From contig JANXOP010000049.1 in NCBI GenBank assembly GCA_025357755.1, forward strand, positions 32,333-96,332: a DNA stretch of 64,000 nt, given 5' to 3'. The translations under genes were made by a program, and so were the position numbers. Below, piece after piece: positions 17,045 through 39,695 of this stretch (within the stretch, counting starts at the first letter, position 1; the number at the start of each line of letters is the position of its first letter). The stretch comes from Kofleriaceae bacterium (GTDB lineage: Bacteria; Myxococcota_A; Polyangia; Haliangiales; Haliangiaceae). The notes beneath the pieces were generated by a model. It worked only from the letters and a program-made list of their open reading frames with translations, was not told where the DNA came from and made no database searches.

Positions 17045-17353
17045 GTAACGAGCACGACTGCTCGACCGTAGGACAAAATCTATCCCCTACTGTTTCAGTA
17101 GGTGGGCTCCACGGTAATCCTTTGGGCTTCCTGACGAGCAGGCGTGCACACCCAGATCAGAGGCAGATCCCTGGATAGAAATATAGGAGATTGATTTGTC
17201 CCGGGTCTCGCATCGAGCAGCCGTGCTCGAGATCAAAGCTACGCATCGCGATCCAATCCGTCAATTGGAAAAAAGACGGGGCGATCACTTCGCTAAAACT
17301 CCGGAGCGCACGGACAACCACGCACCGTGTGGGTTACGCGCTGCGCGACGACG

Positions 17354-28674: not shown

Positions 28675-29565
28675 TCAGCCGATTCGCTTGCCGTCGGGGG
28701 CCCACTGATAGAAGCCTTCGCCGGACTTCTTGCCGAGCTTCTTCGCGGCCACCTTGTCGATCAAGATCTGCGGCGGGGTGAAGCCCGGGCCGAGCACGGT
28801 CGTGAGGTACTGCGCGATGCCGAGGCGGACATCGAGGCCGACGAGGTCGGTGAGCTCGAGCGGCCCCATCGGGTGACCGTAGCCGAGCTTCATCGCGGTA
28901 TCGATATCGGCGGCTGATGCGACCCCTTGCTCGAACATCCGCATCGCCTCGAGGCCGATCACGAGCCCGAGCCGGCTCGATGCGAAGCCGGGCGAATCGG
29001 CGACAGTGATCGGCGTCTTGCCGAACTTCTCGACGAGCGCGACCGCGAGCGCGACCGCTTCCGGGTGGACTCTCGGGTGGCGCACGACCTCGACGAGCTT
29101 CATCACGTGGACGGGATTGAAGAAGTGCATGCCGACGAGGCGAGCGGGATCCGCGAGGCCGTTCGCGATGTCTGCGATCGGCAGCGACGAGGTATTGGTG
29201 GCAAACAAGGCGTGGTCAAGCGCGACCCGATCGACGATGCCGAAGATCTCGCGCTTGAGCCCCAGGATCTCGGGCACCGCTTCGATCACGACCTCCACGT
29301 CCTCGACGACCGCCTCGAGATCCTCGAACGCGCTGAGACGCGCGAGCGTGGCATCGCGCGCCTCGGGCGTGACCTTCCCGAGCTCGACGCCCTTCGCGAG
29401 ATTCTTCGCGATCTTCGCGATCGCACCCGTGGCGGCGCCGGCGACCTTGTCCTGGATCCGCACCGCGATGCCGGCCTGTGCGGCGACATGCGCGATCCCG
29501 TGACCCATCGTGCCTGCGCCGATCACGGCGATCGTGCGAACTTGATCGAGAGTGGGGAGTGTCAC
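28675..29565 (-). CDS. 3-hydroxyacyl-CoA (3-hydroxybutyryl-CoA) dehydrogenase
   Basis: IAVIGAGTMGHGIAHVAA (NAD fold), NTSSL, HFFNPV, SPGFASSRL, GYGHPMGPLELTDLVGLD. GTG start at 29565. Confidence 0.9.
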   Translation of the reverse strand: MTLPTLDQVRTIAVIGAGTMGHGIAHVAAQAGIAVRIQDKVAGAATGAIAKIAKNLAKGVELGKVTPEARDATLARLSAFEDLEAVVEDVEVVIEAVPEILGLKREIFGIVDRVALDHALFATNTSSLPIADIANGLADPARLVGMHFFNPVHVMKLVEVVRHPRVHPEAVALAVALVEKFGKTPITVADSPGFASSRLGLVIGLEAMRMFEQGVASAADIDTAMKLGYGHPMGPLELTDLVGLDVRLGIAQYLTTVLGPGFTPPQILIDKVAAKKLGKKSGEGFYQWAPDGKRIG

Positions 29566-29594
29566 CGCGCGACCATACTTGGTACGGTTTACGG

Positions 29595-31235
29595 GTGCAC
29601 GTAGTAGCCGATGTCGATCGCTTGCAACGCGAGCTCGAAGCGATCTTCGGGCCGCGGCGGGTGTCGACACGCGCCGTCGATCTCGAGACCTATTCGCGCG
29701 ACATGTGGCCGCGGTTGTTGATCGCATATCGCGAGGGCCAGCAGGGACCTCGCCCGCACGTCGTCGTATGGCCGGAGCACGTGCGCGAGGTCGTCGCGGT
29801 CGTCAAGCTCGCGCGCGAGCAGCGCATCCCGATCGTGCCCTACGGCGGTGGCTCGGGTGTCTGCGGGGGCGCGGTGCCGATCCTCGGCGGCATCACCATC
29901 GACATGAAGCGGATGCAGCAGATCCGTTCGGTCAGCTCGGCCGAGCTGGTGTGCGATGTCGAGGCCGGGTTGAACGGCGAGCGCTTCGAGCGCGAGCTCG
30001 CGCGCCGCGGCTACACGTTCGGGCACTTTCCCTCGTCGATCTATTGCTCGACCGTGGGGGGCTGGATGGCGACCCGCGCGGCGGGCCAGCTGTCGACCAA
30101 GTATGGCAAGGTCGAAGATCGCGTCGCCGGGCTCACCGTGGTCACGGGCCGCGGCGAGGTGATCGAGACCGACGGTCCGACCCGAGCGCTGCGTGGCCCG
30201 AGCTGGACGCAGCTGATCTGCGGCAGCGAAGGCACGCTCGGCATCATCACGTCGGCTCGGTTGCGCGTGAATCCCGCGCCGCAGCAGCGGGTCTTTCGCG
30301 GCTACGAAGTCGAGAGCATCGAGCAGGGGCTCGAGGCGATTCGCCGGGTCGTCCAGAAGGGCCTGCGCCCCGCGGTGATCCGGCTCTACGACGAGCTCGA
30401 CACGCTGATCAACTCGATGAGCCATCACGATCCGAAGGAGCCGAACGAGCGCGACAAGACGCTCCAGCCGCCGCACCTCGATGTCGAGACCGGCGCGCTC
30501 CCGGCGTGGCCGGAGATGGAGCGGGAAGACCGCGGCTTCGTCGATCGCATGATCGCGCTCGCGAAGGGCAAGGGCCTCCGCGGCACGGCGATGAACCTCG
30601 CGCTCGGCAAGAGCAGCGTCGTCAACAAGTTGTTCGGCGCGGTCGAGAAGGTCGCGCGCCGCGGATGTCGGATGGTGATCGGGCTCGAAGGCGCGCGGAT
30701 CCGGACCGAGGTCGAGGCGGCGCTCACGTTCGCGGAGCTCGAGGCCGCGGGGGCGAAAGATCACGGCGAAGATCCGGGCTGGGCGTGGCTGCGCCATCGC
30801 TACGCGGTGAGCTATCGGATGTCGCCGGTCTTCCGCGACGGTGCCTTCGTCGACACGATGGAGGTCGCGGCGAGCTGGGATCGCATGCAGGATCTCTATC
30901 ACTCCGTGCGCAACGCGATCGGCAAGCACGCGCTCGTGATGGCGCACTTCTCCCACGCGTACGCGGATGGTTGCTCGATCTACTTCACGTTCGCCGGCCA
31001 CGCGCCGGATGCGCCGGGCGCCGAGCGGCTGTACGACGCGATCTGGCGTGATGGGCTCGAGGCGACGACGCGAGTCGGCGGGACGATCAGCCATCACCAC
31101 GGCGTTGGCCTGCTCAAGGCGCCGTACATGGCGGGCGAGCATCGCGAGGCGATGGCGCTGTTCGAGGCCGCGAAGCAGAGCCTGGATCCCGAGGGCGTGA
31201 TGAACCCCGGCAAGATGGGATTGCGCCAGCGATGA
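29595..31235 (+). CDS. FAD-linked oxidase, alkyl-DHAP-synthase-like
   Basis: PIVPYGGGSGVCGGAVP (FAD-binding PCMH domain), GSEGTLGIIT, C-terminal GGTISHHHGVGLLKAPYM (AGPS-like SHHHGVG). GTG 29595 start is uncertain and lies only 29 nt from the divergent hbd-like start. Confidence 0.75.
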   Translation: MHVVADVDRLQRELEAIFGPRRVSTRAVDLETYSRDMWPRLLIAYREGQQGPRPHVVVWPEHVREVVAVVKLAREQRIPIVPYGGGSGVCGGAVPILGGITIDMKRMQQIRSVSSAELVCDVEAGLNGERFERELARRGYTFGHFPSSIYCSTVGGWMATRAAGQLSTKYGKVEDRVAGLTVVTGRGEVIETDGPTRALRGPSWTQLICGSEGTLGIITSARLRVNPAPQQRVFRGYEVESIEQGLEAIRRVVQKGLRPAVIRLYDELDTLINSMSHHDPKEPNERDKTLQPPHLDVETGALPAWPEMEREDRGFVDRMIALAKGKGLRGTAMNLALGKSSVVNKLFGAVEKVARRGCRMVIGLEGARIRTEVEAALTFAELEAAGAKDHGEDPGWAWLRHRYAVSYRMSPVFRDGAFVDTMEVAASWDRMQDLYHSVRNAIGKHALVMAHFSHAYADGCSIYFTFAGHAPDAPGAERLYDAIWRDGLEATTRVGGTISHHHGVGLLKAPYMAGEHREAMALFEAAKQSLDPEGVMNPGKMGLRQR

Positions 31236-31257
31236 GCGCGAGAAACGCGGAGCAGCG

Positions 31258-32499
31258 ATGACCGCGAGCGCCATGACCGCGCTGCGTTCCGCGATGGTCG
31301 CGGCGGTCGGCCCGGCCTACGTCACCGACGAGCCTGGTGAACACCCGGGGCTGCGCGTGACCCCGGGCTCTGCGGCCGAGGTCGCCGAGGTGATTCGTCG
31401 CACCGGCGAGCTGGGCGCGACCATTCATCCGATCGGCGCGCGCCGCCGCCCGGTCGAAGCCTCGGCCGATGATCGCGAGCGCGTGTTCATCTCGACCTCG
31501 CGCCTCGATCAAGTGCTCCAGCTCGACGAGCACTCGCTGCTCGTGCACACGCAAGTCGGGCTCACCGGCCAAGCCCTCGAGCGGATCCTCGCGCCGCGCG
31601 GGCTCTCGCTTGGCGACTATCCGCCGGTCGTCTTGGCCTCGTCGATCGGCGGCATCATCGCGGTGCGCACGCCTGGAAAATCGAGCGCGCGTCATGGCTT
31701 CTTCGAAGACGCGGTCGTCGGAGTTTCGGCGGTGCTCGCGGATGGACGCACGGTCCACACCCGCGTCGCGCCGCGCCGATCGACGGGTCCGGATCTCGCG
31801 CGCGTGCTGTGCGGCAGCGAAGGCACGATCGGCTTCATCACGAGCGCGGTGCTGCGCATCCACAAGGTGCCGGAGGCGCGGCTCGTCGGCGCGTACCTGT
31901 TGCCCTCGATGGAAGCCGCCATCAACGCGGTGTATCTCGCGCTGCGTGAAGAGGCCGCACCCTCGGGGATCCGGATCTACGATGCGGCGGAAGCCGCACG
32001 GCACTTTAGCAACCTCGAGCTCGCGCCCGATCAGGTGTTGATGTGCGCCGGCACGGCGGGGCCCACGGATCTCGCGGCGTGCGATCGCGATCTCATCACG
32101 AGCGCCGTGATCGCCGAAGGCGGCTGGGCCACCGATACGGGGCTCGCGGAGCTGTGGTGGCGCCGCCTGCACGAGGGCGAGCCCACCCCGGCACCGCTGC
32201 CGACCCTTCAAGTGATGGGGACACCGACGAAGTTGCAGGTCGTCTATCGCGCCGTGATCGCGGAAGCCGCGCGGCTCGGCACGTCGGCCTCGGCGCATAT
32301 CTCGCGCTTCGATCCAGATGGCGGCTTGTTGTTCGTGACCCTCGGCGACGAAGCGCAGACCGCCACGATCGAAAAAGTCGCTGCGGCCGCGGGTGGTTGG
32401 TTGCTCGGTGCCCGCGCCACGAAGCTCGACGGATATCTGCGCTCGCTCCGCGCCGTGCTCGACCCGCGCGGCATCATGAACCCCGGCACACTCGCGTAA
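31258..32499 (+). CDS. FAD-binding PCMH-type oxidoreductase (GlcE-like partner subunit)
   Basis: AAEVAEVIRRTGELGATIHPIGA, GGIIAVRTPG, GPDLARVLCGSEGTIGFIT, C-terminal LDPRGIMNPGTL. Confidence 0.75.
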   Translation: MTASAMTALRSAMVAAVGPAYVTDEPGEHPGLRVTPGSAAEVAEVIRRTGELGATIHPIGARRRPVEASADDRERVFISTSRLDQVLQLDEHSLLVHTQVGLTGQALERILAPRGLSLGDYPPVVLASSIGGIIAVRTPGKSSARHGFFEDAVVGVSAVLADGRTVHTRVAPRRSTGPDLARVLCGSEGTIGFITSAVLRIHKVPEARLVGAYLLPSMEAAINAVYLALREEAAPSGIRIYDAAEAARHFSNLELAPDQVLMCAGTAGPTDLAACDRDLITSAVIAEGGWATDTGLAELWWRRLHEGEPTPAPLPTLQVMGTPTKLQVVYRAVIAEAARLGTSASAHISRFDPDGGLLFVTLGDEAQTATIEKVAAAAGGWLLGARATKLDGYLRSLRAVLDPRGIMNPGTLA

Positions 32500-32520
32500 G
32501 TCCCACGCGGAGCAGGGGAT

Positions 32521-32540
32521 CTTGGAAGTGTTTCTCCAAG
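32521..32540 (+). promoter_or_regulatory. Small hairpin just upstream of paralog 1
   Basis: CTTGGA-agtgtttc-TCCAAG, ending 4 nt before ATG 32545. Could occlude the ribosome landing site or act as a weak terminator after the FAD oxidase genes. Confidence 0.25.
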
Positions 32541-32544
32541 TGAG

Positions 32545-33543
32545 ATGAAGTCATCACGACGGGTCACCCGGTCGTGGTTGTGTAGCGTGGTGAGGCGCGC
32601 GCTCGCAGTCGGGCTAGTGATGGCGGCGGCGCCCGCCCTGGCCGATCCGTGTGCGGTCACGATCGTGCGTGCACCCGCCGCCGTGCGCGCCACCGTCGAG
32701 AGCTGGCTCGCGACGGAACGCTGTGGCGTGTCGCTCGCGGTCCGGATCGTCGAGAGTGAGGGCGAGCTCTACATCTTCGCGATCGACGACAAGGGGGGCG
32801 TGCGTGAACGCACCGTGCCGGACGCGCAGAGCGCTGGCCTGCTGATCGCGAGCTGGACCGCCGACGATGGGCTGACGACTCCGACCTCGGTCGCCGCGCC
32901 CGTACCGACGCCGAGCATCGAATCGACGCCGGCCCCGACGCCCGTGCCCTCCGTCTTGATGGCCAGCGACACGACCGTCCGCGAGCACTTCGACGGTCGA
33001 CCGATCCACTCGCTCGAGAGCCAAGGCGACGAGCACTGGCTCACGCTCGCGGCTGGCTCGACGATGACGTCGGGCTTCGCGGGTCGCGCCGAGATCGAGG
33101 TGGTGCGCCACCAGGGCTTCGCAGTGAGCATCGTCACCGGCATCGCTCAAAACCGAGATGCCGCGAGCCTCGACTCGACGATGACGTCGACCTTCCACCC
33201 GAGCTACACGGATCTCGTCGCGATGGTGGGTGTCCAGCATACGTGGCGATGGCCGCGCTGGCACGTCCGTGCCGGCGTCGCGGCGGGTGTCGTCGTGTCG
33301 TCGCTGTCGCTCGACTGGACGAACCCGTACGGCAACAGCGTTCGCGAGACGGCGTCGTTGGTGTCGCTGGTCACCGAGGCCTCGACCGCAGTGGGCTACG
33401 CGGTCACCGCACACTGGGAGGCCGAGGTCGGTCCCGCGATCACGAGCTCGAACCAGGGCTACTACTTGCCGAACCAGATGGAGACGCTGCTGCGTAGGCC
33501 ATGGAGCGTCGCCGTGTACGTCGGAGTCCGTCGTTCCTTGTAA
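32545..33543 (+). CDS. Paralog 1 of an uncharacterised exported family: signal peptide, two-Cys N-domain, Pro-rich linker, predicted small beta-barrel
   Basis: MKSSRRVTRSWLCSVVRRALAVGLVMAAAPALA / DPCAVTIVRAPAAVRATVESWLATERCGVSLAVRIVESEGELYIFAIDDKGGVRERTVPDAQSAGLLIASW. Linker TPTSVAAPVPTPSIESTPAPTPVP. Amphipathic strands ending VAVYVGVRRSL. Confidence 0.75.
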   Translation: MKSSRRVTRSWLCSVVRRALAVGLVMAAAPALADPCAVTIVRAPAAVRATVESWLATERCGVSLAVRIVESEGELYIFAIDDKGGVRERTVPDAQSAGLLIASWTADDGLTTPTSVAAPVPTPSIESTPAPTPVPSVLMASDTTVREHFDGRPIHSLESQGDEHWLTLAAGSTMTSGFAGRAEIEVVRHQGFAVSIVTGIAQNRDAASLDSTMTSTFHPSYTDLVAMVGVQHTWRWPRWHVRAGVAAGVVVSSLSLDWTNPYGNSVRETASLVSLVTEASTAVGYAVTAHWEAEVGPAITSSNQGYYLPNQMETLLRRPWSVAVYVGVRRSL

Positions 33544-33598
33544 CCGTCCGGGTCGAAAAACCGGCGATGAAAAGCCGGCGACCGGCAACCCCCTACGC

Positions 33599-34513
33599 AT
33601 GCGCCTCTGGCTCTCCACCCTCGCACTCGGGACGGTCGTATCCGGCGCGGCGTTCGCGCAAGCCGCACCATGTTCCGTGACGATCGTGCGGGCACCCGAG
33701 AGCGAGCGCGCGACGATCGAACAGATCATCGCGAGCGAGGTCTGCGCCACCTCGCTCCAGGTGCGCATCGTCGCGACGGAGACCGGGCTCTACATCCTGG
33801 CGACCGATCCGCGAGGGTACGTGCGCGAACGCGTGGTTCCCGACGCGACGAGCGCGGGCGTGTTGATCTCGAGCTGGGCGGGCGAAGCCGCCGTGCAGGC
33901 GCTGCCGCCATCGCCACTCGTGACCGAGCCGGTACTCGCGCAGGGCGACGACGATGCCCCCCCGCTGCCCGTGTTCGTGCAGCAACCCGACAAGTTCCTC
34001 GCGCTCGCACTCGGGACCGGTGTGCAGCAAGGCACGTTCTCGAGCGACGGCCTGATCGCGCTGCGCGCCGAGCTGGATCTCGCGAGTTACGAGGACTGGA
34101 CGTTCGGCGTCATCGGCTCGCTCAGCCGCGCGACCGCCAACACCGACGGCATCTCGGTCTACGGAAGCAGCTACAACACCGCGGCTGCGAACGTGAACGA
34201 CTACGCCGTCGCACTCGCGGTCGGGCACGTCACTCGCTGGGATCGCTGGGACCTGCGCTTCGGCCTCGGCGTGGGCGCGATCGTGACATCGATCAGCGCC
34301 ATCGGCGGCGATCAAGGCTCGATGAGCCGCAGCTGGATAGAGGGCTCTCTGTTGCTGGGCCACGCGCTCGGTGACGGTAAGGCCTGGGAGCTCGAGGTCG
34401 GGCTGGAGGCCTCGCGCGCCGACCAGCAAGGTCAAGTCCGAGACATGCCCTACACCATCGAGCGCGCACCCGGCTCTTTGTTCGCACTCGCCGGCCTTCG
34501 GCGGGCACTCTGA
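33599..34513 (+). CDS. Paralog 2 of the same family
   Basis: MRLWLSTLALGTVVSGAAFA / QAAPCSVTIVRAPESERATIEQIIASEVCATSLQVRIVATETGLYILATDPRGYVRERVVPDATSAGVLISSW ... LFALAGLRRAL. No alternative start codon between the paralog 1 stop and ATG 33599 in this frame. Confidence 0.75.
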   Translation: MRLWLSTLALGTVVSGAAFAQAAPCSVTIVRAPESERATIEQIIASEVCATSLQVRIVATETGLYILATDPRGYVRERVVPDATSAGVLISSWAGEAAVQALPPSPLVTEPVLAQGDDDAPPLPVFVQQPDKFLALALGTGVQQGTFSSDGLIALRAELDLASYEDWTFGVIGSLSRATANTDGISVYGSSYNTAAANVNDYAVALAVGHVTRWDRWDLRFGLGVGAIVTSISAIGGDQGSMSRSWIEGSLLLGHALGDGKAWELEVGLEASRADQQGQVRDMPYTIERAPGSLFALAGLRRAL

Positions 34514-34515
34514 TC

Positions 34516-35508
34516 ATGCGCGCGGTCATCTTTATCGTGCTGGTCACCGCGGCGCGCGCATTCGCGCAACTGCCGCAGGAGGCGGCATGCGAGGTCGCGG
34601 TCGTCCGCGCACCGGACGATGCACGCGCGACGATCGAGCAGATCCTCGCGAGCGAACATTGCACCACGTCGCTCCAGGTTCGCGTCATCCCGACGACTGG
34701 CGGCCTGTACCTCATCGCGACCGACGATCACGGCCGCGTCCGCGAGCGCGTCGTGCCCGATGCGACGAGCGCGGGGGTGCTGATCGCGAGCTGGTCGGCC
34801 GATGATGGCGTCGCTGGCTCGATCGCGCCTCCCGCTCCGTCACCATCGACCTGGCAGGGGCCACCGCGCGTGCCCTACGGCGATACGTTCCATCCTCCGA
34901 GCTCGGTTGTTCCAGAGGGTGTTCCAGAGGGTGCCCTCGACGGTGACGACACCGACGCCGGTGAGCCACCACCGAACGTGCCACGCCCGAAGCGGTTCCT
35001 TGCATTTGGTGTTGGCCTCGGCGCCAACAGTGCGTACGGGATCCGCGCCGAGGTCGACGTGCTCGCGCATGCTGGTTGGACGGTCGGCTTGATGGGATTC
35101 CTCACGGGTCAGACGATGCGGGTCGATGACCCTGCCAAGTTCCAGACCCTCGATGCGCAGGTCGTCGACTACGGCGCCGCGGTCACCGTCCGTCGGATCG
35201 TGCGCTGGGCCGATTGGCATCTCCGTTTCGGGGCCGGCCTCGGCGTCCTGGCCTCGACCGTCAACCTCGATCAGGTGGCTTACAGTGCGACCCGCGTCGC
35301 GCGGGGGAGTGGCACGGCCGCGGCGCTCTGGGCCGAGGGTGCGGTGTTCCTCGGTCACTCCATCGGCGAGACCAAGAAGTGGGAGCTCGAGATCGGGCCG
35401 ACCGCTTCTTACGCCGAGGAGACCTGGGACATCGCGGACACGATGTCGACCCTGACGCGGCAGGCCGGCAGCTTCCAGGTCATCGCCCAGCTGCGTCGAG
35501 GCCTATGA
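34516..35508 (+). CDS. Paralog 3 of the same family
   Basis: MRAVIFIVLVTAARAFA / QLPQEAACEVAVVRAPDDARATIEQILASEHCTTSLQVRVIPTTGGLYLIATDDHGRVRERVVPDATSAGVLIASW ... FQVIAQLRRGL. ATG 2 nt after the paralog 2 stop. Confidence 0.8.
   Translation: MRAVIFIVLVTAARAFAQLPQEAACEVAVVRAPDDARATIEQILASEHCTTSLQVRVIPTTGGLYLIATDDHGRVRERVVPDATSAGVLIASWSADDGVAGSIAPPAPSPSTWQGPPRVPYGDTFHPPSSVVPEGVPEGALDGDDTDAGEPPPNVPRPKRFLAFGVGLGANSAYGIRAEVDVLAHAGWTVGLMGFLTGQTMRVDDPAKFQTLDAQVVDYGAAVTVRRIVRWADWHLRFGAGLGVLASTVNLDQVAYSATRVARGSGTAAALWAEGAVFLGHSIGETKKWELEIGPTASYAEETWDIADTMSTLTRQAGSFQVIAQLRRGL
34909..34932 (+). repeat. Perfect 2 x 12-nt tandem duplication inside the paralog 3 linker
   Basis: GTTCCAGAGGGT GTTCCAGAGGGT encodes VPEGVPEG. 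In-frame slippage-type duplication. Confidence 0.85.
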
Positions 35509-35558
35509 AAGCTCGACTCGTCTCCGATGAAACGCGGGCTTTCGGCAACCCCCTGACC

Positions 35559-36551
35559 ATGCGTCTGTCCTTCGTCGCCCTGCTGACCGCCAGCACCGCC
35601 GTGGCTCCCGCGTTCGCGCAGCCCGCCGCGCGGTGTGCCGTGACCGTCGTGCGTGCGCCCGACGACGTCCGCCTGACGATCGAACCGATGCTCGCGACGG
35701 AGCACTGCACCACCTCGTTGCAGGTTCGCGTCATCCCGACCGAGCGCGGCTTGTACGTGATCGCGGGTGACGAGCACGGCCGGATGCGCGAGCGTGTCGT
35801 CCCGAATGCGACAAGTGCTGCCGTCTTGATCGCGAGCTGGGCCTCCGACGACAGCATCACGGGCGCGCCACCGATACCTGTACCACCGGTCTCTGCACCA
35901 CCGGTCGCGGCCGTCCACGACGGCATCATGGGACCGAGCATGGTGCCGAGCACCGCACCGAGCATGGTCGACGAACCCGATCGCAGCGATGAGGACGACG
36001 AGGTCGCCCCGGTGCAGCATCCCGCGCGGTTCATCACCCTCGGCATCGGGGGCGCTGCGGGCAGCGGCACGGGGATTCGCGCGGAGGTCGATCTGCTCGA
36101 TCACTGCAACTGGACGTTCGGGATACTCGGCTCGATCACCGGCGAGACGATGCGTGTCACGGACTACATGCAGGCATACGCGACCAACTACACCGCGACC
36201 ACCAGCGACTACGCGCTCGCCGTTGCCGTCGGCGGTACCCACCGGTGGGGCACCTGGCATCTGCGTACCGGTGCGGCGCTCGGGCTCGTGATCTCGACGC
36301 TCGAGCTCGAGCCGGACTACTCGAACCAGAACTCTCCGTTCGCGGGCGGTTCGGGCACGACGGCGAGCCCGTGGTTGGAAGCCCATCTGCTGGCGGGGCA
36401 CTCGCTCGGTGCGACCAAGCGGTGGGAGCTCGAGGTCGGTGCGACCGTGTCATACGCGAAGCAGAGTTGGTTTGTTGGAGCGACGATGGAGACGCTCGCG
36501 CGCGATGCCGGGAGCATCATGCTCGTCGCCAACGTGCGGCGCGGAATCTGA
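35559..36551 (+). CDS. Paralog 4 of the same family
   Basis: MRLSFVALLTASTAVAPAFA / QPAARCAVTVVRAPDDVRLTIEPMLATEHCTTSLQVRVIPTERGLYVIAGDEHGRMRERVVPNATSAAVLIASW ... IMLVANVRRGI. An in-frame ATG at 35505 (ATGA overlap with paralog 3) is an alternative start. Confidence 0.75.
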   Translation: MRLSFVALLTASTAVAPAFAQPAARCAVTVVRAPDDVRLTIEPMLATEHCTTSLQVRVIPTERGLYVIAGDEHGRMRERVVPNATSAAVLIASWASDDSITGAPPIPVPPVSAPPVAAVHDGIMGPSMVPSTAPSMVDEPDRSDEDDEVAPVQHPARFITLGIGGAAGSGTGIRAEVDLLDHCNWTFGILGSITGETMRVTDYMQAYATNYTATTSDYALAVAVGGTHRWGTWHLRTGAALGLVISTLELEPDYSNQNSPFAGGSGTTASPWLEAHLLAGHSLGATKRWELEVGATVSYAKQSWFVGATMETLARDAGSIMLVANVRRGI

Positions 36552-37135
36552 TGAAGAAAGGAGAGCTCGTCGAGCTACGACCGTCGCGAGCTGCTCGCGC
36601 GATGGACCAGGAGATCTCCGATCCGGGTCTGGTAGCGGCATGCGCTGCGGGCGATCGCACGGCGCGCGCCTTGCTGTTCGAGCGCCACGTCGATGCGATC
36701 CATCGCTTCGTCGCGCGCATGCGCGGTAGCGATGCGGATGTCGTCGACGATCTGGTCCAGGCGACGTTCTTGCGCGCGTTCGGCGCGGCGGTTCGGTTCA
36801 ACGGTACGACCGCGCGGGCGTGGCTGCACGGGATCGCCGCGAATGTCGTGAAGGAGCACGCGCGCAAAGAGATCCGTCGCAAGAAGGCGATGAGCGCGGT
36901 CGCCGAGGTGACGTTCGGGACGGCGCAGCCGGTCGATCCCACGCTCGCGCGCCTGCCGGGTGCGATCGCAGAGCTCCCGCATGCGCTGCGCGCGGCGTTC
37001 GTGCTGATCGATCTCGAAGGCGAGAAGGGGGTCGATGCGGCGAACGCGCTCGGTATCCCTCAAGGCACGCTGTGGCGTCACGTCTTCGAAGCGCGCTGTG
37101 CCTTGCGCGCGACGCTTCATGGAGATGATCCGTGA
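36551..37135 (+). CDS. ECF-type RNA polymerase sigma-70 family factor
   Basis: ATG overlaps the paralog 4 stop (TGATG). Region 2: LLFERHVDAIHRFVARMRGSDADVVDDLVQATFLRAF. Region 4: LPHALRAAFVLIDLEGEKGVDAANALGIPQGTLWRHVFEARCAL. Confidence 0.85.
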   Translation: MKKGELVELRPSRAARAMDQEISDPGLVAACAAGDRTARALLFERHVDAIHRFVARMRGSDADVVDDLVQATFLRAFGAAVRFNGTTARAWLHGIAANVVKEHARKEIRRKKAMSAVAEVTFGTAQPVDPTLARLPGAIAELPHALRAAFVLIDLEGEKGVDAANALGIPQGTLWRHVFEARCALRATLHGDDP

Positions 37136-38232
37136 GCTGTCCTAGTGTCGAGCAACTCGCCGCGGCTGCTGCGGGCGAGCACGCCCGTGCCGCCGATCAT
37201 GCGCTCGCTTGCGCGGAGTGCGCGTCGCTGCTCGCGCAACAAACCGAGGTCCGCGCGCTCGGTCGTCAGCTCGTGCCGCCGAGGCTCTCGCCGTTGCGTC
37301 GCGCGAGGCTCGCGCTCGCGTACGATCCGGTCGAGGAGATCCGCTCGCTCGCCTCGCAGTTGCCACCGCCAACGCTCGAGCCGCGCCGGCGTGCGGAGCT
37401 CGCGGCGGAGACGCTCGCGCTCGCCGAAACCGTGCAGCGCCAACGCGTGCCGTGGTTCATCCTCGGTCCCGTGCTCGCGGCGGCGGCGGCGGTGGCGCTC
37501 GTGGTGGCGCTGCGAAGGGATCCGACGTTGGTCGCGGTCGCGTGGCCCGATCATGCGTGGCTCGACGCGCACGGCGCGTACCGTGGAGCTCGTGCGCCCG
37601 CTACACCGCCCGAGGCTCTGGTCCACGCGAGCTCGCCGCTCGGGCCGGTCGCGCCGATCGGCCCGAGCGGGCACGGCGATCCTTCACCGCGTGCGAGCTC
37701 GTCGCGCGTCGCGGCGAGCGTGTCGGGGAACGCCGACTACTCGCGTGATCGCGACCGCGTCGAGCTGCGTGACGGGACGATCGCGATCGATGCCCGCGAT
37801 CGATCGCCGGTTGCAGTCGCGATCGGCGACACGACGATCCACGTCAAGGATGCGCGCGTCGTGATCACCGCGGCGCATGGCGTGATCGTCTCGGCCCACG
37901 CGTTCGCAGGTTCGGTCGAGCGCACCAGCCCCGAGTCGACGACGATCATCTCTGCCGGTGAAGTGTGGACCCCGCCGGCGGCCGAGGTCGCGCTGCGCGC
38001 CTTCCGCACTGGCTGGACGGCCTTGCACGAAGGTCGCAATGCCGACGCGCTCGCCGCATTCAGTCGCGCGAGTGATCCCGTGATCTCCGAGGAAGCCGCG
38101 TTCTGGGCAGCGGTCGCCGAACAGCGGCTCGGTGACCACGAAGCGGCGGTCGCGCGCTTCAAGGCGTTCCTCGATGCCTATCCTGCCTCGACGCGCGCAG
38201 CGGCTGCGCGCTCGGCGCTCGACAAGCTCTGA
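37132..38232 (+). CDS. Anti-sigma factor: ZAS motif, single TM, periplasmic FecR-like domain, TPR-like C-terminus
   Basis: GTG overlaps the sigma stop (GTGA). HALACAEC is HxxxCxxC. TM WFILGPVLAAAAAVALVVAL. VELRDGTIAIDARDRSPVAVAIGDTTIHVKDARVVI...FAGSV...ISAGEVW is FecR-like. C-terminal helical repeats follow. Confidence 0.8.
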   Translation: MSCPSVEQLAAAAAGEHARAADHALACAECASLLAQQTEVRALGRQLVPPRLSPLRRARLALAYDPVEEIRSLASQLPPPTLEPRRRAELAAETLALAETVQRQRVPWFILGPVLAAAAAVALVVALRRDPTLVAVAWPDHAWLDAHGAYRGARAPATPPEALVHASSPLGPVAPIGPSGHGDPSPRASSSRVAASVSGNADYSRDRDRVELRDGTIAIDARDRSPVAVAIGDTTIHVKDARVVITAAHGVIVSAHAFAGSVERTSPESTTIISAGEVWTPPAAEVALRAFRTGWTALHEGRNADALAAFSRASDPVISEEAAFWAAVAEQRLGDHEAAVARFKAFLDAYPASTRAAAARSALDKL

Positions 38233-38234
38233 AG

Positions 38235-39101
38235 CTACCAGTTCACCTGTTCGCGCTTGCCACGGCCGCGACGTTCGCCCCGGCTCTCGTGAGGCGAGTG
38301 GCGATCGGAGTAAGCGCGAGCCCGCTTTTGGATCTCGGGGGCGAGTCCGAAAGAGGCGAGGTGCCCGAGCGTCGGCGAGGCGCGCTCGAGATCTGCGACG
38401 TGCATCGCGAGCACCGGATCGACAGGACGACCGTCGAGGCGAACTTCGAAGTGGAGGTGTGGGCCGGTCGCGCGGCCGGTCGAGCCGACCTGACCGATCC
38501 GTTCGCCCGCCGTGACGGTGTCGCCCTTCTTCGTCTCGATCCGACGCAGGTGACCGTACAGCGTGACGACCCCACCGCCGTGATCGACATAGATCACGTT
38601 GCCGTACCCATTCTGCCGACCCGCGAACGAGACGACACCATCACCCGCGACATCGACCGGCGTGCCGGGGTCCGACGGGAAATCGGTGCCGCCGTGAAAC
38701 TTCCAGGTGTGACGAATCGGATCGTCACGCCAGCCGTACCCCGAGCTCAGCACTTCCGGAATCGGTTGGGTCGTGAGGATCGTGATGTCGGGGATCGTGC
38801 TCGGCGTTGCCGCGGCCAAGGCGACGAGGCGGTCGGTCGTGGCGTGAAACAGATCGCGAAGCCCGAGCTCGTAGTGAACGATCGGCTCGATCAGGTCGTG
38901 CGTGAAGTGCAGATCGAACGTCGTCGCGAAGCGCGCGACCAGCATCGCGATCGAGCCGGGCACGGGCCTCGGCTCCTCGGCCGCGAGCTGGGTGGCCGCG
39001 ACCGGGGCCATCCCCGGATCGGTTGGCTCCGCGAGGGGCTTGGAGGTGACCGCACACGCACTCGACGTGACGATCGCTACCGTGAACAACACCCGATGCA
39101 T
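38235..39101 (-). CDS. M23 (LytM) family metallopeptidase
   Basis: SGYGWRDDPIRHTWKFHGGTDF, GYGNVIYVDHGGGVVTLYGHL, GSTGRATGPHLHFEV. N-terminal signal MHRVLFTVAIVTSSACA. Confidence 0.9.
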   Translation of the reverse strand: MHRVLFTVAIVTSSACAVTSKPLAEPTDPGMAPVAATQLAAEEPRPVPGSIAMLVARFATTFDLHFTHDLIEPIVHYELGLRDLFHATTDRLVALAAATPSTIPDITILTTQPIPEVLSSGYGWRDDPIRHTWKFHGGTDFPSDPGTPVDVAGDGVVSFAGRQNGYGNVIYVDHGGGVVTLYGHLRRIETKKGDTVTAGERIGQVGSTGRATGPHLHFEVRLDGRPVDPVLAMHVADLERASPTLGHLASFGLAPEIQKRARAYSDRHSPHESRGERRGRGKREQVNW

Positions 39102-39203
39102 GGAGGTCCAAGTTTTTGGCGATCAACCCCTTTGATTCAATGTAGGCATGCGGATTTTCGAGCTTATGTAAGGCAGTGCCAGATTCGTGTTGCGTGTGAG
39201 GCG

Positions 39204-39695
39204 ATGCATCATCAAGATGCCAGCGCCGTGAAATCGAGATGGCCGCTCGTCGCAGTCGCACTACTTTCTGCAACGTTGTTCGCGATCTCCGTTTGGATCG
39301 GGCAATGGTGGACGGTCGGTGAGGTCGCAGTTGGCCCCATGGGCTCGCGCCATTGTTTCAATGGTGACTGTCGCCCCGCCGGCCTCGCGTGGTTGAACGC
39401 TGGGGAGTTATGGCAGCGCTGCGCGATCGCGACGTGGGTCGGTTGCCTCGTCAGCATGGTGCTGCTTCTCGGTGTGGCCGGTGCGTATGCCGCGAACCGC
39501 ACGCCGAAGCTGATCGCCAAGAGCACGCTGACCGGGCTCGTCACCACGGCACTCGCCGGCGGGTACTTCATCGCGAAGATGCCCAGCGCGGGTGATCCGC
39601 AGCTCCAGCAAGGCGCGTACATGTTTATCGCCGCGATCGTGCTCGGCTTCGTCGCGCCGATCAAAGCGCTACGCAGCGCGAAGCCAAGGCCTTGA
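39204..39695 (+). CDS. Hypothetical 4-TM membrane protein
   Basis: MHHQDASAVKSRWPLVAVALLSATLFAISVWIG..., then three further hydrophobic helices. It is the last 163 codons of the long ORF. Confidence 0.55.
   Translation: MHHQDASAVKSRWPLVAVALLSATLFAISVWIGQWWTVGEVAVGPMGSRHCFNGDCRPAGLAWLNAGELWQRCAIATWVGCLVSMVLLLGVAGAYAANRTPKLIAKSTLTGLVTTALAGGYFIAKMPSAGDPQLQQGAYMFIAAIVLGFVAPIKALRSAKPRP

Follow-up and report, generated by a model that had tools for sequence, protein, structure and literature searches.

The DNA analysed here, referred to throughout as the window, is a stretch of 64,000 nt from a Kofleriaceae bacterium (assembly GCA_025357755.1, contig JANXOP010000049.1, forward-strand positions 32,333–96,332). 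The listing of open reading frames (ORFs) and direct translation place six genes on the + strand at approximately 32545–38232: four paralogs of an exported two-domain protein, labelled P1 to P4, followed by genes for an extracytoplasmic function (ECF) sigma factor and a membrane anti-sigma factor. Coordinates of the genes, their domains, the promoter-like motifs and selected neighbours are given in Table 1.

Table 1. Genes, domains, motifs and neighbouring features (window coordinates).
Feature	Position	Strand	Details
Paralog P1	32545–33543	+	ORF of 332 aa; N-domain 32650–32868, linker, barrel 33034–33540; likely start GTG 32587/32590
Paralog P2	33599–34513	+	304 aa; N-domain 33671–33889, barrel 33992–34510
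Paralog P3	34516–35508	+	330 aa; N-domain 34588–34806, linker residues 98–159, barrel 34993–35505
Paralog P4	35559–36551	+	330 aa; N-domain 35634–35852, barrel 36027–36548
ECF (group 4) sigma-70 factor	36551–37135	+	194 aa; conserved 17-aa N-terminal extension
Membrane anti-sigma factor	37132–38232	+	366 aa; HxxxCxxC 37198–37221; transmembrane helix 37453–37512
Anti-sigma, putative periplasmic parts	37513–37758; 37759–37968; 37990–38229	+	variable linker; FecR-like beta region; CpoB/YbgF-like TPR
Motif 1, GATGAAG-N12-GGTCACC	32544–32568	+	ahead of P1
Motif 2, GATGAAA-N12-GGCAACC	33566–33590	+	ends 8 nt before P2 ATG
Motif 3, GATGAAA-N12-GGCAACC	35526–35550	+	ends 8 nt before P4 ATG; nearest candidate promoter for P4, sigma and anti-sigma
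M23 peptidoglycan endopeptidase	38235–39101	-	Pfam E 2e-34; convergent, 2 nt past anti-sigma stop
Ser/Thr kinase with C-terminal transmembrane segment	39838–41412	+	preceded by small membrane ORF
6S/SsrS RNA gene	17051–17226	-	Rfam RF00013, 78.8 bits against a gathering score of 46.4

Gene structure and start codons

P3 begins 2 nt past the stop of P2, the stop of P4 overlaps the ATG of the sigma gene (TGATG), and the stop of the sigma gene overlaps the GTG of the anti-sigma gene (GTGA). The original prediction, made from the letters of the window alone, had described four tandem same-strand paralogs of a single architecture together with both of these overlaps. The paralogs hold up on translation, full-length alignment and scoring against a hidden Markov model (HMM) of the family (E 6e-93 to 2.5e-115); the overlaps are present in the sequence and the sigma N-terminus is conserved. 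The NCBI call for the sigma factor is a 177-aa protein starting at M18 of the longer frame. Protein-level conservation of the 17 residues that precede it (MKKGxLIxLRP...) extends to more than 25 of the related loci described below, so the 194-aa start at 36551, and with it the TGATG overlap, is right. This extension, which stands ahead of region 2, may be a regulatory handle, with kinases encoded nearby.

Start codons were likely miscalled at two further points (32545–32590, the P1 ATG, and 35505–35558, the public P4 call), both of which overlap a promoter-like motif. The true start of P1 is probably the GTG at 32587 or 32590 (MVRR/MRR...) rather than the ATG at 32545, since the 15-residue extension lacks a counterpart in all relatives and overlaps motif 1. 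For P4 the 330-aa start at 35559 fits the family better than the 348-aa NCBI call, which is disfavoured because it would place the third motif inside coding sequence and because its extra residues occur in no relative.

The paralogs: a conserved N-terminal domain tethered to a variable barrel

P1 to P4 align over their full length. Each has a signal peptide with an AxA cleavage site, two invariant cysteines in a C-x23-C arrangement and the motifs VR, GLY, RER.VP and LI.SW; a variable Pro/Ala-rich stretch follows, and then approximately 170 residues of alternating strands ending in (L/V)RRx(L/I). Judged from the alignment and the HMM scores, the similarity is true paralogy, far beyond chance. 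Conservation is unevenly distributed: between pairs of window paralogs identity is 58–77% in the N-domain and 27–48% in the barrel, and across 52 members of the family (1326 pairs) mean pairwise identity is 59.5% for the N-domain and 24.9% for the barrel. By this measure the N-domain is the sole strongly constrained part of the family.

Sequence profiles place the proteins in no named family. None of the four has a significant Pfam or NCBIfam match at E ≤ 1, the only entry being a sub-threshold match of P1 to Phage_tube_2; no barrel family of Pfam is matched, and by sequence the four do not belong to OmpA_membrane, OMP_b-brl or related families. A search of PDB sequences with the family profile returned nothing significant. 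Among relatives, the weak Pfam matches that recur are to families of outer-membrane barrels (DUF4421, Autotransporter, MipA and OMP_b-brl), all of them sub-threshold; OMP_b-brl, for example, appears in 4 of 22 relatives with a best E of 0.021.

Structure prediction is more informative. P3 was modelled with AlphaFold2 from an alignment of 22 sequences. The model has a mean predicted local distance difference test (pLDDT) score of 81 and divides into three parts: a beta-alpha-beta-beta-beta-alpha domain at residues 25–95 (pLDDT approximately 90 or more), a disordered stretch at residues 98–158, and eight long antiparallel strands at residues 161–329 (pLDDT mostly above 90). The strands are 17–22 residues long and amphipathic, with alternating hydrophobic and polar faces. 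When the P3 barrel was compared with the PDB by Foldseek, the top 50 matches were almost all outer-membrane barrels: NspA came first (E 3.4e-5, template-modelling (TM) score 0.60 on the target), followed by the OmpA transmembrane domain, OmpT, Ail, OpcA, OmpX, OmpW and PagL. The leading entries (1p4t, 9fzd, 1bxw, 3qra, 1qj9 and 2f1t) have a probability of 1.0 and target-normalised TM scores of 0.5–0.6. The model and these matches support the view that the C-terminal region is an eight-stranded antiparallel barrel of outer-membrane type, exported behind a Sec signal peptide. The extreme C-terminus is distinctive. Proteobacterial outer-membrane proteins typically end in an aromatic residue; in all complete members of this family the last residue is L or I, after R-[RHY]-x.

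Because an even number of strands puts both termini of the barrel on the periplasmic side, the N-domain would be periplasmic and tethered to the outer membrane. The tether is 23–85 residues long across the family (median 48) and contains 22% Pro. The N-domain itself comprises 73 aa with an alpha/beta fold and two cysteines, and modelled alone it reaches a pLDDT of 89 and a predicted TM score of 0.79. Its best fold matches are at the level of topology: HPF/YfiA (E 0.056–0.1), the periplasmic domain of VtrA (E 0.12) and the N-domain of TolB (E 0.65). No peptidoglycan-binding fold was matched in Pfam or by Foldseek, and a profile search for the N-domain in other architectures yielded no informative fusion, its results being short fragments and a single chimera. 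Two other identities were considered and rejected: the proteins are not lipoproteins (no lipobox precedes the first Cys and the cleavage site is AxA), and export of the N-domain in the manner of an autotransporter does not fit a barrel of eight strands rather than 12.

The small barrel of about eight strands, the exported tethered periplasmic domain and the absence of a named family for that domain had all been anticipated in the original prediction. The first two are now backed by the model, with the Foldseek matches pointing to membrane barrels and not to soluble folds, and the third by Pfam, NCBIfam, fold and profile searches that gave no significant match.

One unusual ORF carries part of the N-domain. 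In locus L112 (1158–1184 and downstream; P0240) a 118-aa ORF stands behind a copy of the motif described below, with the signal peptide and first half of the N-domain fused in frame to the last TPR of the anti-sigma. It seems to have arisen by loss of the barrel, the sigma factor and most of the anti-sigma, whether through natural deletion or as an artefact of assembly, and is not a meaningful fusion.

The sigma factor and its anti-sigma

The sigma factor matches Sigma70_r2 (2.7e-12) and Sigma70_r4_2 (1.3e-6) in Pfam and TIGR02937 at 51.4 bits against a cutoff of 42.9; by these matches it is a generic ECF (group 4) sigma-70 factor with regions 2 and 4 only. The cognate anti-sigma gene lies directly downstream, and the order sigma, anti-sigma is kept in every locus in which both genes are on the contig.

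The anti-sigma begins with a predicted cytoplasmic domain in which H23, C27 and C30 are invariant, and C3 nearly so (at least 90%), across 26 homologs. H-x3-C-x2-C with an upstream Cys conforms to the class I motif of zinc-binding anti-sigma (ZAS) domains. Profiles did not return such a domain: zf-HC2 (PF13490) is absent from the families listed at E ≤ 1 (two for the window protein; the 25 most frequent of 32 across 26 members), and the match to Mycobacterium tuberculosis RslA (3hug_B) is weak (E 0.67). After a single hydrophobic helix (residues 108–127) come a variable linker of about 80 residues and a beta-rich region (210–279) that aligns with matches to FecR (PF04773) in 9 of the 26 homologs, all of them under the gathering score; the window protein itself has no FecR match at E ≤ 1 in Pfam. 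The C-terminus (287–366) is a TPR: TPR_6 is found in 26/26 homologs, and the TPR of CpoB/YbgF (6g5s, E 9e-8) is the sole notable match of the anti-sigma profile among PDB sequences. The STN-like domain found at the C-terminus of FecR (FecR_C/DUF4974) is not present. The label ‘FecR-like’ is thus a reasonable one for an alignment that stays sub-threshold. Of the description originally offered for this protein, the HxxxCxxC motif, the single transmembrane helix and the TPR-like end stand, the first being invariant; the FecR-like domain stands in weakened form, as a sub-threshold similarity seen in homologs only.

Distribution and synteny

A word-indexed search returned only 21 relatives. An exhaustive profile search of 1.84 billion representatives gave 502 at E ≤ 1e-3 and 258 at E ≤ 1e-30, which puts the family at approximately 500 clusters when grouped at 50% identity. 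Among the 150 best listed, most match the profile over essentially its full length and are approximately 300–340 aa long. All 32 loci from species-representative genomes come from metagenome-assembled genomes labelled Kofleriaceae, Haliangiales, Myxococcales or, in older usage, Delta-/Proteobacteria, and we propose that the module is restricted to the Kofleriaceae/Haliangiales (Myxococcota).

Genes were mapped by HMM on six-frame ORFs. In 27 of 32 informative loci (four further contigs end too early for a call) one to four family genes are followed by the sigma gene and then the anti-sigma gene, all on one strand and abutting or overlapping. The association also holds in the opposite direction: when the search starts from anti-sigma homologs, the weakest of them at E 1e-10, family genes and a sigma gene lie upstream in all four loci. 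The linkage is kept even at low identity, as in locus L164, where the anti-sigma is found at E 1e-10 with a family gene at E 3e-26. The tie between the family and the sigma/anti-sigma pair, first proposed from the window alone, is therefore confirmed by the gene neighbourhoods, forward and reverse.

Copy number ranges from one to four, most loci having a single copy, and some genomes carry two separate modules (L024 with L028; L034 with L040). The tree identifies P1 as the ortholog of the first gene of two-gene loci and P2 to P4 as a recent expansion of the second; a separate four-copy expansion has taken place in L002/L015.

A two-box motif ahead of the family genes

Of particular interest is a motif, GATGAAA-N12/13-GGCAACC, that stands ahead of family genes (extended consensus gcGATGAAA-N(12/13)-CGGCAACCa from 36 distinct sites). 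The window contains three sites where 0.01 would be expected by chance. P3, sigma and anti-sigma have no motif of their own: P3 abuts P2, and the sigma and anti-sigma genes are coupled to P4. In the 569 kb made up of the window and the related loci, a regular expression for the motif matches 47 times. Of these matches, 43 stand immediately ahead of a family gene, on its coding strand, and four fall by coincidence, at a spacing of 10, within a conserved dehydrogenase gene. Of 39 loci, 32 have the motif before their first family gene; counted by gene, 42 of 64 family genes have it, and those without one are mostly internal genes that abut the gene before them. The motif is also found ahead of four of the five orphan copies, that is, family genes with no sigma gene nearby (L004, L018, L035 and L041).

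The two boxes are held at a fixed distance of 12–13 nt, and at about seven sites, those of P2 and P4 among them, only 8–12 nt separate box 2 from the start codon. A distance so short would put box 1 near -35. Box 1 (TGAAA/C) resembles the AAC-type -35 element of ECF promoters. Searches of 32300–39300 for housekeeping sigma-70 promoters and intrinsic terminators gave none above shuffled expectation. A sigma-54 promoter, which the sequence GGCAAC might bring to mind, was rejected: no conserved TTGC element lies 4–5 nt downstream.

These features make it probable that the motif is the target promoter of the co-encoded sigma factor, which would initiate there and drive P1, P2–P3 and P4–sigma–anti-sigma. 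On that reading, the simplest one, the core regulon of the sigma factor would consist of the barrel genes, and the operon would be under positive autoregulation. Autoregulation from a promoter at the 5′ end is typical of ECF operons. That the paralogs might simply be the regulon of the sigma factor had been offered originally as an alternative to a sensory role; it is this alternative that gains the sole new direct evidence, in the form of a putative promoter motif before family genes, orphans included.

Two further observations concern the motif. In L077 (2160, - strand, and downstream) it stands ahead of a 200-aa protein with a signal peptide, apparently a barrel without an N-domain, that ends in ...AAWQL; in this single case the protein may represent a further target of a sigma factor of this kind. 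In several related loci (L021:7890–7957, L027:7845–7905, L032:7790–7855, L013:6812–6872 and L002:8005–8055) the motif is followed by a leader of approximately 100–130 nt that includes a long hairpin whose apex carries a conserved TGCGGT(A/C)C-like sequence. Of the 20 pairs predicted by RNAalifold, 13 show compensatory changes, and no Rfam family was found in these leaders; the hairpin may be an unnamed cis-regulatory RNA or attenuator. The P1 leader in the window is approximately 20 nt long and has no hairpin.

A proposed three-part envelope module and its alternatives

The reading that we favour, with confidence just short of even, is of a three-part envelope module: a self-amplifying circuit with a new outer-membrane partner. 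Its components would be the ECF sigma factor, the single-pass anti-sigma and an outer-membrane protein not named before, in one to four copies. The sigma factor would transcribe from the three window motifs, giving P1, P2–P3 and P4–sigma–anti-sigma, and the circuit would amplify itself. The N-domain would hang in the periplasm from the outer membrane and bind the FecR-like/TPR part of the anti-sigma; through this contact the amount or state of the barrel proteins would influence the release of the sigma factor.

Contact between the N-domain and the anti-sigma, with modulation of sigma release, is the more tentative element of this proposal, and we give it somewhat less than an even chance. Four observations point towards it: the N-domain is the one strongly constrained part of the family, the anti-sigma has a large protein-binding ectodomain with no other evident ligand, the N-domain and the periplasmic domains of the anti-sigma are both predicted to sit on long flexible linkers, and the linkage of the genes survives deep divergence. 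The regulon role of the paralogs is better supported than a sensor role. In its most far-reaching form the proposal would amount to TonB-independent signalling from the outer membrane to the cytoplasm, in which the novel tethered domain of a small OmpX/OmpA-like barrel directly controls a ZAS/FecR-like/TPR anti-sigma whose sigma factor transcribes the barrel genes from a dedicated promoter. This we regard as unlikely; were it true, lineages could add input or output barrels by tandem duplication alone.

A number of observations weigh against the module as proposed. Some concern the proteins. The N-domain has no PDB fold match at E ≤ 1e-3 by Foldseek and no homology to the signalling domain of FecA: an STN identity was rejected, with no STN in Pfam and no FecA, FpvA or secretin STN in the top 50 Foldseek matches. 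The FecR-like assignment falls narrowly below threshold, the best homolog scoring 23.4 bits against a cutoff of 24 over model positions 37–96 of 97. Others concern the genes: in five loci (L004, L018, L029, L035 and L041) a lone family gene has no sigma gene within 8 kb, and variation in copy number between one and four fits an output better than a dedicated sensor. Finally, the motif is neither universal nor typical. It is missing in the form given above from 7 of 39 loci, and one subclade (L024:7880–7940, L031:7950–8010, L040 and L029) is without box 1 as written and keeps a GGCCACTA-like second box after a GATTGTTTC(A/G)-like element, a pattern which suggests, from the sequences, that promoter and sigma specificity co-diverged there. 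Box 2 (GGCAACC) is unlike the usual CGT-type ECF -10 element. The wider regulon of the sigma factor is not definable from a motif scan of metagenome contigs: among at least 120 matches to GCGATGAAA-N10/11-CGGCAACC four are followed by a family gene, and the remainder are chance occurrences on unrelated contigs (GC content 0.36–0.73), many within coding sequence, and are uninformative on the regulon.

The alternative that survives best, which we rate as doubtful and yet a serious contender, is that the barrels are output only. They would be the main regulon of the sigma factor, for instance as stress-induced envelope proteins, with the N-domain binding peptidoglycan, a lipoprotein or a Tol-Pal-type partner, while the anti-sigma reads an unrelated cue through its HxxxCxxC domain, its TPR or a neighbouring Ser/Thr kinase. 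Such a role accords with the motif ahead of family genes, orphans among them, with the lineage-specific expansions and copy numbers of one to four, with an N-domain unrelated to STN and with the convergent M23 peptidoglycan peptidase in the window and its close relatives; a conserved periplasmic domain joined to a variable barrel is the pattern also of OmpA-type tethers. It accounts less well for the tight two-way linkage that persists at low identity (L164) and for a family gene that is consistently upstream of, and translationally coupled to, the sigma gene, an arrangement stronger than is usual for a mere target. The searches that matched no peptidoglycan-binding fold also speak against it.

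An improbable alternative concerns the motif alone: it might be an operator or an RNA-level element for another regulator, such as an FHA/Trans_reg_C protein or the kinases, with the targets of the sigma factor lying elsewhere. The atypical box 2 invites this reading, as do the short CCG...CGG inverted repeat often seen in the spacer, the leader hairpin that follows the motif in related loci, and the FHA/Trans_reg_C gene and kinases conserved in approximately 12 loci. The motif is present, however, in the subclade of the window, which is without the FHA regulator; its two-box form, fixed spacing and distance to start codons are promoter-like; autoregulation from the 5′ end is usual for ECF operons; and no other promoter-like site was found in 32300–39300.

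Least probable of all is the reading built on the four alternative inputs of the original prediction, a TonB-independent device in which each barrel would bind a different external ligand and the N-domain would relay occupancy to the FecR-type anti-sigma: fast-diverging barrel loops and strands beside a constant N-domain, strands of 17–22 residues that would protrude from the membrane as in OmpX, Ail and NspA, and several paralogs per locus in some lineages are in keeping with it, but the multiplicity is lineage-specific (most loci have one copy, and P2 to P4 are recent duplicates of one ancestral gene), eight-stranded barrels, which have no plug or energised relay, offer no known route from ligand to an N-terminal tether, and there is no STN domain, TonB-dependent transducer or FecR C-terminal domain.

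Surroundings of the module

Ser/Thr kinases are encoded in the flanks of 24 of 36 loci. The M23 gene of the window is conserved only in the close relatives L006, L009, L012 and L014 (and, elsewhere, in L013). Upstream, synteny across 28675–32499 of the window is kept in the window's own subclade (L001, L006 and L167) and comprises a 3-hydroxyacyl-CoA dehydrogenase gene (- strand) and two FAD_binding_4/FAD-oxidase_C genes (+ strand), none with an obvious link to the module.

In another subclade (L020, L021, L023, L027, L028, L032, L034, L038 and L039; for example L028:1877–15750) the module lies within a larger conserved cluster, in the order FHA/Trans_reg_C regulator, Ser/Thr kinase (- strand), Z9 (- strand), U1, U2, family gene, sigma, anti-sigma, W8, V8 and kinase. 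U1, U2, W8, V8 and Z9 have no Pfam match. U2, read in stop-to-stop frames, carries VxVRxNGV(W/F/L) approximately 10–15 residues from its end, which is similar to the beta-signal of outer-membrane proteins except that it does not include the last residue.

No tRNA genes were found in the window.

Significance

Among bacterial signalling proteins the ECF sigma factors form a very abundant class, and for most groups the input is unknown. The module described here supplies a dedicated outer-membrane protein with a new periplasmic domain together with a candidate target promoter. Both are kept across roughly 500 sequence clusters, and they make the question of the anti-sigma's input directly testable. 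If the N-domain binds the anti-sigma, it would be a second, structurally unrelated solution to the problem solved by FecA and FecR; if it does not, these sigma-controlled envelope proteins would still form a new class, in a myxobacterial family that is ecologically widespread and has hardly been cultured. The clade is narrow and mostly uncultured, and the contact with the anti-sigma, the most striking element, is inferred. New here are a family without a Pfam or NCBIfam model, its place as the dedicated outer-membrane partner of an ECF sigma/anti-sigma module, and the corrected gene starts; the literature searched contained no mention of the family.

Comparison with known systems

The closest parallel in logic is FecA–FecR–FecI (and PupB/PupR and FpvA/FpvR), in which an outer-membrane barrel with an N-terminal periplasmic domain is likewise combined with a single-pass FecR-like anti-sigma and an ECF sigma factor, and in which the barrel gene is a target of the sigma factor, as is predicted here from the motif. 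The components differ. The window barrel has a predicted eight strands rather than 22, no plug and no TonB dependence; the N-domain has a beta-alpha-beta-beta-beta-alpha topology and no STN match; the anti-sigma has a cytoplasmic domain of HxxxCxxC type and ends in a TPR in place of the STN-like domain of FecR; and the genes are ordered barrel, sigma, anti-sigma within one operon. With no STN, TonB-dependent transducer or FecR_C domain, the module is not a member of the FecIRA family: the likeness is one of logic and not of homology.

In Escherichia coli, sigmaE is also an ECF factor held by a single-pass anti-sigma (RseA, with RseB and DegS), and its release depends on the state of outer-membrane beta-barrels. 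That system responds to the YxF peptide at the C-terminus of any unassembled porin, which a PDZ protease detects, whereas the window has a dedicated, co-encoded barrel family that ends in RRx(L/I) and not in an aromatic residue, and no linked DegS or RseB genes. As for the barrel itself, NspA, OmpX, Ail, the N-domain of OmpA, OmpW and PagL share its predicted fold, strand number and long protruding strands. Sequence-level membership is lacking, and the extra tethered N-domain is not found in those families.

SigX of Pseudomonas aeruginosa, with CfrX/CmpX and OprF, provides a further case of an ECF sigma gene linked to an eight-stranded OmpA-type outer-membrane protein with a periplasmic domain. 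In OprF the barrel is N-terminal and the peptidoglycan-binding OmpA_C domain C-terminal, and the oprF gene lies downstream of sigX. OprF is both a target and a modulator of the activity of SigX (ECF102) (PMC7826278).

Among the groups of the ECF classification 2.0, ECF267 has a FecR-like TPR anti-sigma and nearby Ser/Thr kinases, and its regulation is called ‘unclear’ (Casas-Pastor 2021, PMC7826278). The window module likewise combines a (sub-threshold) FecR-like and TPR anti-sigma with kinases nearby, a likeness in description. The main text of PMC7826278 gives neither an outer-membrane partner nor a promoter motif for ECF267; by its fit to that description, the module may explain this group and add both.

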